This document shows positions 53,676 through 64,000 of a stretch of 64,000 bases of DNA, piece after piece. A program made the translations under genes and the position numbers. How positions within the stretch are numbered: the stretch's first letter is position 1; each line of letters opens with the position of its first letter. Below the pieces are notes generated by a model. That model did not search any database. It saw only the letters and a list, made by a program, of their open reading frames with translations, and was not told where the DNA came from. The DNA comes from Methanotrichaceae archaeon (lineage in GTDB: Archaea > Halobacteriota > Methanosarcinia > Methanotrichales > Methanotrichaceae): contig CAWDLW010000012.1 in the NCBI GenBank assembly GCA_963803145.1, positions 64,001-128,000 of the forward strand, read 5' to 3'.

Positions 53676-54764
53676 CTAGATCGCCGAGCTTGGCAAGAAG
53701 AAAAACGCAAATCCCAAAATACCATAAACCACAAGCAGCATTGCCCCCTCCAGCCAGTTGGACTCGCCGTCCAGCGATACTAGGGCTGATATGAATGCGG
53801 CTGCAGTCAGCGCTATTAACTCTAAGTTGTTAAACTCCAGAGTCAAAGGATTGCCCATTAATACAGAGATGAATACAATCAAAGGTGTAACAAAAAGGGC
53901 GATCTGCAGGCTAGAGCCAAGTGCTACAGACAGGCTCAAATCCATTTGGTTCCGTCTGGCCGCTTGCACAGAGACCAGATGCTCAGAAACATTGCCGATG
54001 ATAGGAACGATGATGATTCCTATAAAGAACTTAGTCAAGCCTAGTGTTTCCGTAGCCACTTCAACCGATCCTATCAGAAGCTCGCTCATTACGGCAATGC
54101 CGATTGTAGTGAGCGCCATCAGGGTAATTGCCTGCCGCAGGTTCAATGGCGATCCGATAAGCTCTGCATCATTGGCGCTGGTGCCTATTTCAGATTCTTT
54201 ATCTCCATGAGACCTCAGAGTATAGATGATTGAAAGAAGATAAAGGACCAGAATTGCTCCTGCAGTTGTCAGGCTAAGTTCTTCGACTCCGAGACGGTTG
54301 GGTTCGATATAATGGCTGAAAAGCGATGGCACGCTGATAGCGATTACTACCAGAATTGTCATAGTAGAATCGATGCTTGCAGTGCGACGCTCAAATCTTT
54401 GTATGCCGTTTTTTATGCCCCCTAAAAACATGCTGAAACCAAGGACAAACAGCAGGTTTCCTAGGATTGAGCCGACAATAGATGCTCTGGCCAGCTCAAT
54501 CTCAGTCGCACTGATGGCAACGAGCGTTATGATCAACTCAGTTGCGTTTCCCAAGCTTGCATTCAATAGCCCTCCCATACGTGGGCCAGTCTTTTTGGCC
54601 AGATCATTGGTCGCCTCACCAAGGATGCCAGCCATCGGAATGATCGCCAAGGCAGATGTTGTAAAGATTATGAGGTCACTCCATTGCGCAAGCTTAGCAA
54701 ATAGTGCAATTGGGAAAAAAATCAACAGTACTCGAATCCCGAGCATCTCTTTATCCTTTATCAT
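53676..54764 (-). CDS. cax: Ca2+/H+ antiporter (CAX/ChaA)
   Basis: GNATELI and GNVSEH alpha repeats, GSSLQIAL, SNWLEG. Confidence 0.92.
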   Translation of the reverse strand: MIKDKEMLGIRVLLIFFPIALFAKLAQWSDLIIFTTSALAIIPMAGILGEATNDLAKKTGPRMGGLLNASLGNATELIITLVAISATEIELARASIVGSILGNLLFVLGFSMFLGGIKNGIQRFERRTASIDSTMTILVVIAISVPSLFSHYIEPNRLGVEELSLTTAGAILVLYLLSIIYTLRSHGDKESEIGTSANDAELIGSPLNLRQAITLMALTTIGIAVMSELLIGSVEVATETLGLTKFFIGIIIVPIIGNVSEHLVSVQAARRNQMDLSLSVALGSSLQIALFVTPLIVFISVLMGNPLTLEFNNLELIALTAAAFISALVSLDGESNWLEGAMLLVVYGILGFAFFFLPSSAI

Positions 54765-56289: not shown

Positions 56290-56400
56290 TTTCGCCAGAG
56301 TTTATATACCTATATGCAATCAAGCCATTAGCGAAAGCAACCCTCTAAAACGGGGCATAATAGCATAATATTTATCTCAAAGAGACCCTTAAAGGGGGCT
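56290..56400 (+). promoter_or_regulatory. CRISPR leader
   Basis: TTTATATA box at 56301-56308; non-coding region next to the first perfect repeat; the degenerate repeat is at the far end. Confidence 0.7.
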
Positions 56401-57805
56401 ATCGCAAAGCTGATCCCGATGAAAAGGGAACTGAAAGTCTGGCTTAGCCCCCTCAATAGTTACTATGATGCGTTTAATCGCAAAGCTGATCCCGATGAAA
56501 AGGGAACTGAAAGGAAAGTATATGAATATCCCGGTAGATCCATGCTTGCTTGTGAGAGATCGCAAAGCTGATCCCGATGAAAAGGGAACTGAAAGTCTAT
56601 CTGTTCAGGATCATAGATCTCTGATGATTGTTATCGCAAAGCTGATCCCGATGAAAAGGGAACTGAAAGCAAAATTAGACATGGTCATACAGAGAATCAG
56701 AGACGCAGATCGCAAAGCTGATCCCGATGAAAAGGGAACTGAAAGCAGTTCCGGAACTGCTTATACATATCGAATCTTTAGAGAATCGCAAAGCTGATCC
56801 CGATGAAAAGGGAACTGAAAGCTATTAGTCGCCCTATCTCAGCGTCCCTGGCCTCTGCAATCGCAAAGCTGATCCCGATGAAAAGGGAACTGAAAGATAT
56901 CGCAGCTATCAGAGTCGTCCTGGAGAGTTAATCATGGATCGCAAAGCTGATCCCGATGAAAAGGGAACTGAAAGCTCCCTATCCGAGAACTTAGCCTGGC
57001 AGGGAGGGCTATATCGCAAAGCTGATCCCGATGAAAAGGGAACTGAAAGTGTTGATGATCTGCCTTTGTATGACGGGCTTAGAGTCTTTGAATCGCAAAG
57101 CTGATCCCGATGAAAAGGGAACTGAAAGTTAAGAACTCCTCCGCATTCGAATGGACTGAAGGAAATATCGCAAAGCTGATCCCGATGAAAAGGGAACTGA
57201 AAGCCCTTTGTGATATCTCTTACCAGGACTTGGAAAAAGCATCGCAAAGCTGATCCCGATGAAAAGGGAACTGAAAGATGGGTCCAGAGACATTTACCAA
57301 CTCCCGCAGGAGTAAGATCGCAAAGCTGATCCCGATGAAAAGGGAACTGAAAGTGCTATCTTTCTCTTCTCTAGCGAAAATATTCAAGCCCATGATCGCA
57401 AAGCTGATCCCGATGAAAAGGGAACTGAAAGAGGAAGCCTCGGCAAGCGGAAAGGCCATAGGAGACGGCATCGCAAAGCTGATCCCGATGAAAAGGGAAC
57501 TGAAAGCATGGCTTGGTATGCTTCCTCAATAGTTTCCATCTTATCGCAAAGCTGATCCCGATGAAAAGGGAACTGAAAGTGTTTGACGTTGCGCCGTTCG
57601 GAGCTGATACTTCGACTATCGCAAAGCTGATCCCGATGAAAAGGGAACTGAAAGATGAACATGTTAGGCAGGGACAATTCGAATAGATGGTATATCGCAA
57701 AGCTGATCCCGATGAAAAGGGAACTGAAAGAGCCGATGAATGTCGCCGTCAGCGCCGTGCCCACGACAATCGCAAGACCGATCCCGTTGAAAAGGGAATT
57801 TATAA
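56401..57805 (+). CRISPR. CRISPR array: 19 repeats of 37 bp (ATCGCAAAGCTGATCCCGATGAAAAGGGAACTGAAAG), 18 spacers of 36-45 bp
   Basis: 18 identical repeats counted from 56401 to 57694 plus a degenerate terminal repeat at 57769; TCCC/GGGA stem, GAAAG 3' end. Confidence 0.98.
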
Positions 57806-58801: not shown

Positions 58802-58888
58802 TTTGCCTGGATAAGGCCCTGTAAACCCAAGTTTCTTCAATCGCCTGATAAGCTCCCGTCTTGATATGGGAAGGAGTTTAGTCTGCAA
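58802..58888 (-). pseudogene. hicA: HicA fragment truncated before the catalytic His
   Basis: KLLPISRRELIRRLKKLGFTGPYPGK, then similarity to the 34952-35176 HicA is lost. Confidence 0.75.
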
Positions 58889-59132
58889 TAGCTATTGGCT
58901 CCTTTGAGGATTCTATGGTATGGCCACCTATGGGCGGAATCGGATATCCCCATTGAAGCCGAGCTACTATCCATTCCTCGATAACCTCAATGAGATCTCT
59001 CCTGCATTCTTCAAGGGTATCACCAACAGCAATAACACCCTGTAGCCCTGGCACTATAGCCACATAAGAATCATCCTCAAGCGTGTCATATTTAGCACGC
59101 TCCAAGGCTGCTTGGATGTACTCGGAGAACAT
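58878..59132 (-). CDS. hicB: HicB-family antitoxin
   Basis: MFSEYIQAALERAKY...VPGLQGVIAVGDTLEEC; paralog of the 33093 and 35169 copies. Confidence 0.85.
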   Translation of the reverse strand: MFSEYIQAALERAKYDTLEDDSYVAIVPGLQGVIAVGDTLEECRRDLIEVIEEWIVARLQWGYPIPPIGGHTIESSKEPIAIAD

Positions 59133-59193
59133 ATCGTGATCAATTAAAGCCTTAAAAGGATTTAATACTTGCTGAAGTGAAGAACTATCTCGC

Positions 59194-59793
59194 TCAAACA
59201 AGGGCGCATTCACAATATCGTCTGTATTCACAATCCGTACATCTTCCTGGGTTTCTAGTTCCTAATGGTTCTGTCTCTTCCTGCACAATTCCACCTATTT
59301 CATGGATCATCTTCAGCGTGCGTCTACGTATTTCATCTGTGAAATCGATTCTGGCATTGATCTTGTCGCGACTGTAATGGACGTAGCCCCTCCGAACAAT
59401 GGTCCTGAAACAATCCTCCACCAATAGCGCATAAGCAGCAAGCTGGTACTTATGGTTCAAATGGACATTTCCAGCATTTGATAGGCCAAACTTGTAATCC
59501 ACAGGGACGTATTCTCGTTCAGTTTTTATCAGGTAGTCAAGGATGCCTTTAAGGCCCAGGGCGTTACTTTCAAGAGCAACGCGAAAAAGCTTCTCTGCTT
59601 GGTCGAGTTCAGAATCATAGAATATCGCTCCCTTTCTGCGGCGTTCCTTGGCTGTGATATCATCATGCTTCTCCTTGCCTGTCTCAAGCTTTTGGTCGGG
59701 TGGCTTGGGAACATGGAGCACATGGTCGAAGTAGATTATCTTGGGGCAGTAGAGATATTGCTTAACATCGCTGACTGTGATCATGCCCTTCAA
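59194..59793 (-). CDS. cas4: CRISPR-associated Cas4
   Basis: YLYCPK, GILD, VDYK, QLAAY, CTDCEYRRYC Fe-S cysteines. Confidence 0.92.
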   Translation of the reverse strand: MKGMITVSDVKQYLYCPKIIYFDHVLHVPKPPDQKLETGKEKHDDITAKERRRKGAIFYDSELDQAEKLFRVALESNALGLKGILDYLIKTEREYVPVDYKFGLSNAGNVHLNHKYQLAAYALLVEDCFRTIVRRGYVHYSRDKINARIDFTDEIRRRTLKMIHEIGGIVQEETEPLGTRNPGRCTDCEYRRYCECALV

Positions 59794-61132: not shown

Positions 61133-61273
61133 AAGCGAGGCCTCAGGTCTAAAGTTACTATGCCAGTATTTTTTTATCGATGATATTTCTTTCGTACCCT
61201 TGGAAAAACTGATCTTGACGGTCTGAAGGATCAACTACTAATATAATTTCACGAAATCGATCTATGAGGAGAA

Positions 61274-61759
61274 ATGAACGACCGATTTGCTCGGGAATCT
61301 TTACAAAAGATCGAAACGAGTTTCTTTCAGACCCCCACATTTCAGGCACTGACTATCGGTATCCCTTTTTGCATCTTCAAGCTCCTTTTTGGAGCTTTAA
61401 GCATCAGGGCAGGCACAGATCCACAATCTCCTTTGGTTATTTTCGGCTTATTGATCATCCTCTGGGCATCTGCTGATCTAATAATGAACCTGGTTGTAGT
61501 AGCCTTCAATACTGCAGGCCGCAAATCGCCAATCGAGTTCTGCACAATCGCCCAAGTAGGACGCCTTTTCGGGAAATCAAAGCTGTTCCTGGCCATTGAT
61601 ACACTGATCGCCTTTTGCATCATCTGCTTCGTCCTCTGGTCAGGATGGATAAAGCTTCTCAATATCAATGAATCGTACATCTGGTATGCGGCCACCACAC
61701 TTAATCTCATAAGCATCTCCATTGTAAACATATGGTTGGAACTGAGGAGACGACCCTAG
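61274..61759 (+). CDS. Hypothetical membrane protein (about 4 TM)
   Basis: GAGGAG RBS, hydrophobic segments, 161 aa. Confidence 0.6.
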   Translation: MNDRFARESLQKIETSFFQTPTFQALTIGIPFCIFKLLFGALSIRAGTDPQSPLVIFGLLIILWASADLIMNLVVVAFNTAGRKSPIEFCTIAQVGRLFGKSKLFLAIDTLIAFCIICFVLWSGWIKLLNINESYIWYAATTLNLISISIVNIWLELRRRP

Positions 61760-62585
61760 ATCATACATCATTCAAGAAAGAGATAATTGGATACTTCCCC
61801 CACACGGGTGAGGCATACCCTGATAGAGGTTTCCAAGAACCTTGAGTGTGACTTCGATTTAGCGCGGCAAATAAGAACAATATTCGCATTTGGAGCTGCT
61901 ATTATAATTCAAGGGCTTTATACTTCCTTTTGGGACTGCTACTAGCGGTTATACTAGCGCACTCAATCGCCGTGCGGGCTACCCCTAACCCCTCTTCGGG
62001 GGAAGGTTTCCTGAGATATGGGCGACAAGGTTGATTGGGACATGATGAATGATTCCCTCCAGCTATGTTCCTTTACCCCAGCTAAAATCGTTCGTCTTTG
62101 TGCGTTCTTCGTGAACTTCGTGTTTTGGTGGTTGGTAGTTCGTCGTTTGTTTAATATCTGGACCAATTACTTTTCGCCACTAAGGCAGCCATTATGTTTC
62201 ATTCCTGTATTGCGCGTCCTCAATCTCCTTCAGCTCTGCCATCTCGCTTCTTCTTATGTTATCTAAGATCGTAGTGATCTCATCGATGCTCTCGATTCTA
62301 CGTACGACTTCCTCTTTTGTGGTCATTTCAAGCCTCCCAATAATGGCGGTCGAGCCAACTGATCGATCTTGATCCCGACTTGATGCTCACCAGCGCACAG
62401 GTGTGTCTGCCTGGCGGGATTGTGGGATGTTGGGGAATTGCTGCTATCATTTTAATTCGCCTTAATACCGATGCGGGTCGATAGTATATATATTTTTGGT
62501 TATATTGGTAATATAGGTTATGATGGTGCTATGTATTTATATAATAAGCGAAATTGTTTATACTATGCTTACGACATGTGTTGAT

Positions 62586-62774
62586 ATGAAGCTGGGAGAA
62601 ATCGAGAACGTCGCGGAAAGGGAGACACTCATTGAACCGCTTTATAAGAGAATCGATAAGCATGGACGCATTTATATAGATGTGGGCCTCGCGAACCAAG
62701 AAGCACTTATCTTGGTAGTGAAGCCAATCCCGAAAGACAAAATAGACTTCATCCGCGTGGGAAGGAGATCTTAA
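62586..62774 (+). CDS. Small AbrB/MazE-like (swapped-hairpin) DNA-binding protein
   Basis: KRIDKHGRIYI...EALILVV pattern; 62 aa from ATG 62586. Confidence 0.5.
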   Translation: MKLGEIENVAERETLIEPLYKRIDKHGRIYIDVGLANQEALILVVKPIPKDKIDFIRVGRRS

Positions 62775-63068
62775 ATCTCCTTGGATAATAGTATTAATAA
62801 AAATAGTGTCTATAGTAATCTACCTAATTTATGTTGATGGAATAAGAGCTATAACATTCCTTGGCAGATCCTCTATTGTTTAGAGATAATTGGTCAAATC
62901 AACCGCCATGGCTGGAGATCTCTTTTGCCATTTCCGTTTGCCACTCAGTTTGCAGTGAAGCTATTGATCTCTTCCTCTATCTCATCTCTGTCGCTGATAT
63001 TAATAAAGCAATTCGAATTAGGGTCCGAAAAAGATTATAAATATCAAGATTAAGAGTGGTTATGTACA

Positions 63069-63169
63069 GGCTTAGGTGAATATCCCGCGCGAAGGGAACT
63101 GAAAGGTATTGTAATACAGCTTGGCAATGAGCATCGCAGAAGACATCCCGATGAAAAGGGAACTTGAAT
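63069..63169 (+). ncRNA. Degenerate single-spacer CRISPR mini-array (candidate CreA/CreR-like regulatory RNA)
   Basis: Pseudo-repeat 1 ends AAGGGAACTGAAAG (63105); 27-nt spacer 63106-63132; pseudo-repeat 2 ATCGCAGAAGACATCCCGATGAAAAGGGAACT from 63133; BRE/TATA at about 63025-63042; T-tract at 63187-63197. Confidence 0.8.
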
Positions 63170-63269
63170 ATTAAAGTAGCAAAAACTTTTTATTTTTAAT
63201 CATTAATTACACGGGTTAAAATGGTTGAGTAGAAAGCCTTAAATTCTAACCCTGTATTATAAGTTATCT

Positions 63270-63419
63270 ATGCAATATACAGCGAAGAAGGATACAGGCC
63301 CGATAATGGGGTGGGATGATTGGGTTAACCCAAGACCCAACTGGATTTACCAAGCGAATATCATTCCCGTAAATGATGTAATCTTCTACGATTATGCCAT
63401 ACATCGAAATGGGAGGTAA
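63270..63419 (+). CDS. Putative 49-aa leaderless small protein (candidate CRISPR-repressed toxin)
   Basis: MQYTAKKDTGPIMGWDDWVNPRPNWIYQANIIPVNDVIFYDYAIHRNGR; GAAAGCCTTAAAT BRE/TATA-like box about 26 bp upstream; no family recognised. Confidence 0.35.
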   Translation: MQYTAKKDTGPIMGWDDWVNPRPNWIYQANIIPVNDVIFYDYAIHRNGR

Positions 63420-63510
63420 TGGCCTAGAATCATCAATATCTATACTTAGATATTTCTTTCATCTTATGGGAAAGATTTAACATATAATAGGGTTACTGGA
63501 GAGCTAAAGT

Positions 63511-64000
63511 ATGGATGTGGGATCAGGGGTTAAGGACATTAGTGTAAATGAATATAAAAATTTTTTCCAAAAAGCTACAAAGTATGAACCATATCCGTAT
63601 CAAGAAAGTGTTTTTTCTAAAATTTCTAAAGGGGAATCTGTAGTTCTCCGTGCCCCAACAGGGTCAGGGAAAACCCTTGCAGTTTTGATGCCTTTCCTAT
63701 ATTATAGCAGCCTAAACGAGCGATTAATCGATAGAGTTATCTATGTGCTACCTATGAGAGCCCTGGCATTCGATCTCTGTAACTCAACAATAAAGACCGC
63801 CGAAAGCGCAGGGTTCAAGGTAATAAAAAATCCTGAAAAAAGGAGTAATCAAGAGAAAGAGATCTGCATCACAATACAAACAGGAGAACGTCAGAACGAC
63901 CACTTTTTTGAGGGCGATATAATCTTCACAACAATAGATCAGCTATTATCAAGTTATCTAACTATACCTGTATCTCTGCCTAACAGACTTGGCAATATCA
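63511..64000 (+). CDS. cas3: Cas3' helicase, 5' part (runs off window)
   Basis: PYPYQ, APTGSGKT, YVLPMRAL, QTGE, FTTIDQ; no N-terminal HD domain. Confidence 0.88.
   Translation, partial: MDVGSGVKDISVNEYKNFFQKATKYEPYPYQESVFSKISKGESVVLRAPTGSGKTLAVLMPFLYYSSLNERLIDRVIYVLPMRALAFDLCNSTIKTAESAGFKVIKNPEKRSNQEKEICITIQTGERQNDHFFEGDIIFTTIDQLLSSYLTIPVSLPNRLGNI

Follow-up and report, generated by a model that had tools for sequence, protein, structure and literature searches.

Regulatory mini-arrays and the locus examined

Regulatory CRISPR mini-arrays have been shown experimentally in haloarchaeal type I-B systems and in bacterial type I-E, I-F, and V-A systems. The creA and creR genes contain two repeats. 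The first (psiR1) conserves the 5' handle, and the second (psiR2) conserves the part that gives the 3' handle (PMC8501985; 10.1101/2023.03.10.532045). Repression by CreA of Halobacterium hubeiense was lost when any one of positions 1 to 5 or 7 to 11 was altered (PMC8501985). CreR targets may be located some 140 bp ahead of the first cascade gene (10.1101/2023.03.10.532045). A survey reports mini-arrays for about 15% of archaeal loci overall and for about 10% of the archaeal type I-A ones. Their targets are most often cas promoters and also include cargo genes, and the published searches required matches of at least 10 bp (PMC10120712). Here we describe a two-repeat unit that resembles this kind, beside a cas locus in a 64,000-nucleotide (nt) stretch of the genome of a Methanotrichaceae archaeon (GCA_963803145.1).

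The stretch, called the window, covers positions 64001 to 128000 of contig CAWDLW010000012.1 (G000:C12:64001-128000), and all plain positions refer to it. G000 is the genome of this stretch, and other G numbers are genomes compared with it. In the unit, psiR1 and psiR2 are the two degenerate repeats, and psiS is the guide between them.

We hold with moderate confidence that the unit at 63064-63198 is a CRISPR RNA (crRNA)-like gene of the CreA/CreR class, that its target lies at a neighboring small gene, and that its own effector is decaying. The mini-array is a probable regulatory mini-array of a known kind, CreTA/CreR, and it opens no new category. The circuit has a CreTA-like layout and is possibly a fossil. 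An initial annotation of the window had pointed to the unit. Its observation is confirmed, and its interpretation is partly supported.

Structure of the mini-array

The unit and the array with which it is compared contain the following features.

63026-63043, plus strand: purine-rich stretch and ATTATAAATA, putative transcription factor B recognition element (BRE) and TATA box of the mini-array, assigned by eye.
63069-63105, plus strand: psiR1, degenerate repeat, 19/37 identical without gaps (first 29 nt, 11/29; last 8 nt, 8/8).
63106-63132, plus strand: psiS, spacer-like guide of 27 nt, read from the sequence.
63133-63169, plus strand: psiR2, degenerate repeat, 29/37 identical (first 29 nt, the 3'-handle part, 24/29; last 8 nt, 5/8).
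63186-63198, plus strand: two T5 runs CTTTTTATTTTTAA, putative terminator of the mini-array transcript, assigned by eye.
56401-57805, plus strand: main CRISPR array, in which 18 spacers of 36 to 45 nt separate 19 copies of a 37-nt repeat (ATCGCAAAGCTGATCCCGATGAAAAGGGAACTGAAAG).
56291-56310, plus strand: main-array leader motif TTCGCCAGAGTTTATATACC, common to the leaders of related genomes.

The mini-array begins 5.26 kb past the end of the main array and lies 342 nt before the ATG of cas3 (63511). The two repeats have decayed reciprocally. psiR1 keeps the 5' handle ACTGAAAG (8/8) and its final 12 nt, GGGAACTGAAAG (12/12), and has lost the upstream part. psiR2 shows the opposite. psiR1 retains the TCCC/GGGA stem, with a loop of 7 nt versus 8 nt in the array repeat. 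psiS is 9 nt shorter than the shortest of the 18 main-array spacers. These repeats, their stem and handle, and the short spacer had all been described in the initial annotation and were reproduced here.

The mini-array has no leader motif beside it. The only match to the motif in the window, allowing up to 3 mismatches, is at the main array. The BRE/TATA box and T-tract proposed earlier are present as A/T-rich boxes and T runs; their role as promoter and terminator is a reading by eye. If the box is used, transcription would begin around 63063-63067, where psiR1 has its 5' edge. The minimum-energy fold of the transcript includes both TCCC/GGGA hairpins.

An Rfam scan gave no relevant family. 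A strict pattern for repeat pairs with a short spacer, run on a collection of genome contigs, matched only an ordinary 88-repeat array. The exact psiS sequence has no match in IMG/VR. A perfect match in a virus, which would have marked the unit as an ordinary relic, is lacking in that database.

The target site

The target lies between a TATA-like box and the start of a small open reading frame (ORF) of 49 amino acids (aa).

63232-63245, plus strand: GAAAGCCTTAAATT, putative BRE/TATA box of the 49-aa ORF, assigned by eye.
63251-63253, plus strand: CCT, like a protospacer-adjacent motif (PAM), 5' of the target; read from the sequence, with CC backed by sister-array protospacers.
63254-63280, plus strand: protospacer-like psiS target, with 17/27 positions identical, or 17/23 when every sixth position is left out.
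63270-63419, plus strand: 49-aa ORF, with its ATG within the psiS target and with one 49-aa homologue.

psiS matches the target at positions 1-5, 7-9, 13, 15, 16, 19-23, and 27. All four sixth positions are mismatched (P = 0.012 given 10 mismatches). The target spans from 8 nt past the GAAAGCCTTAAATT box to codon 4 of the ORF. The match, its register, the CCT in front, and the covered ATG agree with the initial annotation.

Plain identity is weak evidence, as the annotation had itself cautioned. The genome contains 350 other sites with at least 17/27 (8.27 million positions), and 8.3% of GC-matched 800-nt windows contain such a site. Scores that include register and PAM are rare. We shuffled the spacer 3,000 times and searched within 400 nt on either side. 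We also ran the real spacer on 1,079 genome windows of 800 nt with a GC content of 0.30 to 0.42. The results were as follows.

Seed run of at least 8, any PAM: P = 0.025 in shuffles; 3.7% of windows.
Seed run of at least 8, with CC: P = 0.001 in shuffles; 0/1079 windows.
At least 17/23: P = 0.0013 in shuffles; 0.74% of windows.
At least 17/23, with CC: 0/3000 shuffles; 1/1079 windows.

A seed run of at least 8 with CC never occurred jointly with at least 17/23 among the 3,000 shuffles. The score was chosen after the data had been seen, and the P figures are therefore discounted several-fold. The discounted statistics still favor a real guide-target relation. Genome-wide, seven CCN sites have a seed run of at least 8, near the expectation from composition, and two of the others have longer seeds (10 and 9). 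The six others are all within ORFs of at least 100 aa and match at 10 to 13 of 23 positions. The local target is the sole intergenic site of the seven and matches at 17/23. Such a genome scan had been suggested in the initial annotation.

The PAM was examined through related arrays, from which 484 distinct spacers with related repeats were gathered. The query of one such array matched 38 of 105 family genomes, mostly via the repeats. Two gathered spacers first matched TnpB-like insertion sequence (IS) genes imperfectly, and pattern searches then gave protospacers. One, from the G058 array beside the orthologous cas locus, matched at 39/40 in G003 and G081, and both sites are flanked by ttgCCA. 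The other, from G114, matched IS copies of G058 at 44/44 (two copies), 43/44 (one), and 41/44 (eight). All nine that were examined are flanked by gCCA. More diverged homologues have the flanks CAA (six), CCA (two), and CCG (one). CC at positions -3 and -2 on the 5' side is supported because two independent spacers agree. A CCN-type PAM had been expected in the initial annotation, and CCA was found independently for these sister arrays. The route proposed there, through protospacers of the main array itself, gave none. The 18 spacers of G000 have no protospacer in its own genome, in phages, or in one IMG/VR motif scan. Searches of the main array against phages and of the region against plasmids gave nothing, and a literature search on the Methanothrix/Methanosaeta PAM found nothing relevant. 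As a separate observation, array spacers in the Methanotrichaceae target TnpB-like IS genes (G058, G003, G081).

At the 49-aa ORF, the distance from box to ATG is about 31 nt; it is about 34 nt at cas3 and similar at the mini-array start. These similar distances suggest a leaderless mRNA, and the mRNA of the ORF is probably leaderless. A search of 1.84 billion proteins gave one homologue, P0002, which is also 49 aa long and is 46 to 50% identical (E 1e-6). The two share the invariant core GPI[LM]GWDDW..RPNWIYQANI. P0002 is encoded on two contigs, of which the longer has 16,043 bp. The ORF has no Pfam family, no longer relatives, and no Atlas match. Its AlphaFold2 model has a mean predicted local distance difference test (pLDDT) score of 51.5, too low for a structure search. 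Neither protein was found in 392 genomes of the class, where two weak matches (E 0.005 and 0.008) were judged unrelated, or in a 401-genome sample of the phylum. They were also absent from the JGI metagenome contigs searched; a lone 12-residue match, in a long high-GC frame, was judged unrelated. IMG/VR, plasmids, and phages gave no match to either.

Condition of the cas locus

The mini-array stands just upstream of the plus-strand genes cas3-cas8-cas7-cas5. Parts of this operon are frameshifted compared with the orthologues in G060 (82% nucleotide identity).

63511-64000, running past the window, plus strand: 5' part of cas3, fused helicase and HD, about 800 aa in relatives.
C12:128353 and 128708: frameshifts in cas3 (two).
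C12:130470, 131266, and 131546: frameshifts in cas8 (three).
C12:131835 and 132105: frameshifts in cas7 (two).

The two frameshifts split cas3 into 283, 139, and 362 aa. The decaying interference stretch is C12:127511-132605 and begins at window position 63511. cas5, cas6, cas1, cas4, and csa1 are open. By these reading frames the interference module is decaying selectively, with the adaptation genes, cas5, and cas6 intact. ORFs across the genome are normal in length (1,346 of at least 300 aa and 103 of at least 800 aa), so the breaks are local and probably real. Arithmetic from gene lengths puts the chance that seven random breaks spare the other 4.7 kb at about 0.01. Assembly error in a strain-variable locus may also be the source of the frameshifts.

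The hallmarks of type I-A are Csa1, Cas7/Csa2, a split Cas3'/Cas3'', Cas8a, and Csa5. Csa1 scored 175.5 bits, above its cut-off of 103.35. Cas7 of G060 scored 99.4 against the cut-off of 212.6 for Csa2. Cas3 matched Cas3g best, below the cut-off, and Cas8 had no family match in the profile search. The label type I-A-like, given in the initial annotation, is backed in part: by the Csa1 score, with Cas7 and Cas3 below their cut-offs. The gene that it called cas3' is the first fragment of the fused, frameshifted cas3.

The genome contains a second, complete system of type I-B at C18:132568-156500. It encodes cas1, cas4, cas8b, cas7, cas5, and cas3, all above curated cut-offs. Its two arrays on C18 have 40 and at least 8 repeats ending in ATTGAAAC. 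This handle differs from ACTGAAAG at two positions. A search for Cas10 in G000 found none. With the frameshifts in cas3, cas8, and cas7, the circuit has probably been put out of action, unless its guide is used by the intact type I-B system. Most likely the circuit is no longer run by its own Cascade and is either a recent fossil or served by the type I-B effector on C18.

Four related loci with the same type of cas3 were compared (G058, 20 kb; G060, 16 kb; G007 and G117, 12.1 kb each). None of these stretches contains a mini-array or an isolated two-repeat unit; the comparison of orthologous loci proposed earlier showed neither conservation of the unit nor covariation of guide and target. The gene that diverges from cas3 in G058 and G060 begins with MSRIILSDRG, like Cas1 of G000. 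Their short intergenic region upstream of cas3 contains only a conserved promoter motif.

63449-63490, plus strand: cas3-proximal promoter motif GATATTTCTTTC..GGGAAAGATTTAAC, which G058 and G060 also have upstream of cas3.

G058 and G060 have a single copy of the GATATTTCTTTC...GGAAA motif between cas1 and cas3, and G000 has two. The copies in G000 are at 61181-61208 (partial, beside cas1) and 63449-63473. They flank about 2.2 kb of extra DNA that contains the mini-array.

Proposed mechanism and alternative explanations

In the reading that we favor, a CreA/CreR-class guide gene, a short psiR1-psiS-psiR2 transcript would be cut by Cas6, which is intact in the locus. The product would have the 5' handle ACUGAAAG, the 27-nt guide, and a 3' hairpin. 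Loaded in the CRISPR-associated complex for antiviral defense (Cascade), the guide would recognize the CCT (63251-63253) and form partial pairing with the target at 63254-63280. Cascade would then sit between the TATA-like box and codon 4 and block transcription initiation. It would not cleave, given a guide of this shortness and the imperfect pairing.

Several findings weigh against this reading. The target pairs in the seed at positions 1-5 and 7-9 only, and positions 10-12 are mismatched. Eight of the 10 seed positions needed by haloarchaeal CreA are paired, and the run falls short of 10 bp. The module named CreTA/CreR-like in the initial annotation is matched by the leaderless two-repeat unit and its asymmetric decay, and not by a seed that stops after position 9. 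At -1, the two good protospacer cases have A, and the local site has T. Spacer 2 of G000 has a partial match in a chromosomal gene of G002 with the flank GTC (first 26 nt contiguous, 35/45 overall), which is weighed less because it is partial. Both promoters and the terminator were assigned by eye, and the stability of the transcript fold is no better than that of shuffles (z 0.42). The surrounding 2.2 kb is missing from G058 and G060, and the mini-array with it. The operon has seven frameshifts, and an addiction module should prevent exactly such a loss of cas genes. The 49-aa ORF (ATG CAA TAT ACA GCG AAG AAG GAT ...) is without the tandem rare codons of the CreT type. Its product is a candidate toxin only, and nothing in it indicates toxicity. 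The earlier proposal of a small toxin that makes the cas locus addictive is hard to reconcile with the present state of cas3, cas8, and cas7.

The main rival is that the repeats are what is left of an array that was rearranged and decayed, in a cas locus that is itself rearranged and decaying, that the similarity to the target arose by chance, and that the unit never guided regulation. We consider this unlikely, though it accounts for a good deal. psiR2 is indistinguishable from the last repeat of the main array, which is itself degenerate (29/37; 25/29 in the first part and 4/8 in the last 8 nt). The absence of the unit from the four related loci, the many plain 17/27 sites, and the frameshifted effector genes also fit debris. 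Solitary degenerate repeats occur near the type I-B arrays and at cas6, and repeat debris is therefore common in G000. Four lie between the type I-B arrays on C18, at 144770, 146190, 149328, and 149953, with an IS110 transposase. A repeat-like sequence overlaps the cas6 start at C12:136186-136222 on the minus strand (27/37, last 24 nt nearly perfect), and single repeats follow a leader in four other genomes. The structure of the unit argues the other way. If the last two repeats of an array had survived as a relic, the penultimate one should be normal; the 5' 29 nt of psiR1 have decayed, and its handle is perfect. The spacer is shorter than any of the 18 in the array, the PAM- and register-aware match is rare and uniquely intergenic, and an A/T box and T runs border the unit.

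It is also possible, and we think improbable, that the guide acts like CreR. It would block a distal promoter that reads through the 49-aa ORF into cas3-cas8-cas7-cas5, and Cascade would dampen its own operon. No run of five or more T lies between the stop of the ORF (63419) and the cas3 ATG (63511), which makes read-through possible. The known distance of CreR targets from cascade and the preference of mini-arrays for cas promoters also fit. The block would not reach the conserved motif at 63449-63490, which is downstream of the target; relatives have the same operon without such a guide; and the target is centered on the start of the 49-aa ORF, for which there is a separate homologue. The target is 231 to 257 nt upstream of the cas3 ATG. 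This position, upstream of the conserved promoter motif, means that a direct CreR role is not evident, and it weakens the leader transcript into cas3 suggested in the initial annotation. That the guide acts elsewhere is very unlikely. The candidates are a 10-copy IS that shares the first 13 nt of psiS exactly in all 10 copies and the intact type I-B effector of the same genome, acting with a different PAM; spacers of sister arrays do target TnpB-like IS genes. The IS match is inside the 3' end of a 411-aa transposase ORF, is not at a promoter, and ends after 13 nt. It was rejected as a real target because of its AAA flank and intragenic position. A 13-nt match to the genome is unremarkable (blastn-short E 0.78), and the two-position difference between the handles argues against the type I-B effector. 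The IS itself is 1.4 kb long, with near-identical copies at C8:90171-91571 and nine other places, and its match to psiS was judged a chance one.

A more specific version of the CreA/CreR-class reading is that the unit is a CreTA-type guard that has outlived its own Cascade and whose guarded gene encodes a leaderless 49-aa protein, from a new two-member family, in place of an RNA toxin. We regard it as doubtful. If the type I-B effector has adopted the type I-A-like guide, this would be cross-system guarding. Otherwise it would be a natural example of an addiction module lost together with the genes that it was meant to protect.

Other features of the locus and genome

The main array is followed by minus-strand genes for csa1, a HicB-like protein, cas4, a 92-aa ORF, and cas1. 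The 92-aa ORF is in the slot expected for cas2, judged by position only. After cas1 come about 2.2 kb with small ORFs and a repeat element and then the cas3 operon. cas6 is on the minus strand past the end of the window and encodes 324 aa.

58878-59231, minus strand: HicB-like/UPF0150 gene inside the adaptation operon, between csa1 and cas4.
61883-62060: repeat element of about 110 to 180 nt, with copies near cas6 (C12:136376-136499) and at 54454.
61922-62415: stretch with an 84% paralogue on contig C27.
62520-62774: 84-aa ORF, guessed to be AbrB-like and rejected, with no Pfam or NCBIfam support.
56438-56476 and 57507-57542: main-array spacers 1 and 15, which share CCTCAATAGTT and a nearby TGGCTT[AG]G.

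The stretch 61201-63450 gave roughly 90 blast hits in the genome at 72 to 91% identity, including those of the repeat element. One DNA sequencing run contained a 214-nt contig identical to 62914-63127 and a piece of the repeat element. In G060, small HicA/HicB-like genes are upstream of cas3, as judged by eye. Spacers 1 and 15 look as if they were taken from two variants of one target gene. A degenerate motif common to the two was found at five IMG/VR loci, none a true protospacer (19 to 23 of 36 to 39 positions).

The cas6 ATG is located in the loop of the repeat-like sequence that overlaps it. In G060, cas6 has the last array repeat on one side and a further degenerate repeat (minus strand) on the other. 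The repeat at the cas6 start is either left over from an array since lost or a place at which Cas6 could bind its own mRNA. G098, G107, G084, and G111 each have a conserved CRISPR leader and then a single, often degenerate, repeat. By their layout these loci are empty or collapsed arrays. The one in G111 is directly upstream of cas6.

Comparison with known systems

If the CreA/CreR-class reading is true, it extends the class to a type I-A-like system of the Methanotrichaceae, with a CC PAM and a small protein-coding target without a known family. The guide and target would then persist while cas3, cas8, and cas7 decay. Such persistence bears on the evolutionary stability of guard and autoregulatory circuits.

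The closest system is CreTA of the haloarchaeal type I-B loci of Halobacterium hubeiense and Haloarcula hispanica (PMC8501985). Both have two highly degenerate repeats around a guide, reciprocal handle conservation, no leader, and a place beside the cas operon. Both have a PAM-flanked partial match at the promoter of an adjacent small gene, with position 6 mismatched. The unit here differs in its pairing, with 8 of the 10 seed positions (1-5 and 7-9) plus scattered distal pairs. Its target is a 49-aa ORF and not a CreT mini-ORF RNA whose tandem rare codons sequester tRNA. Its effector is type I-A-like, its PAM is CC versus TTC, and its own Cascade genes contain frameshifts. Repression of the 49-aa ORF is a prediction here, and toxicity of its product a hypothesis.

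The unit resembles CreR in its RNA architecture and in its partial complementarity beside a canonical PAM upstream of effector genes (10.1101/2023.03.10.532045). Unlike the CreR targets described there, the target here is 170 to 200 nt upstream of the conserved cas3 motif, where a different ORF starts. The S. enterica example has 15 consecutive nt, more than the match here.

It resembles the mini-arrays of Shmakov et al. 2023 (PMC10120712) in having two repeats, in being intergenic in a type I locus, and in having a target downstream beside a PAM. It differs from those in its absence from close loci, in which that pipeline demanded conservation, and in a match of less than 10 bp. A protein toxin repressed by CRISPR has also been described (10.1101/2024.01.05.574328). 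The likeness is a protein-coding gene held down transcriptionally by a CRISPR effector, as would be the case here. The difference is that nothing here marks the 49-aa product as toxic or phage derived.

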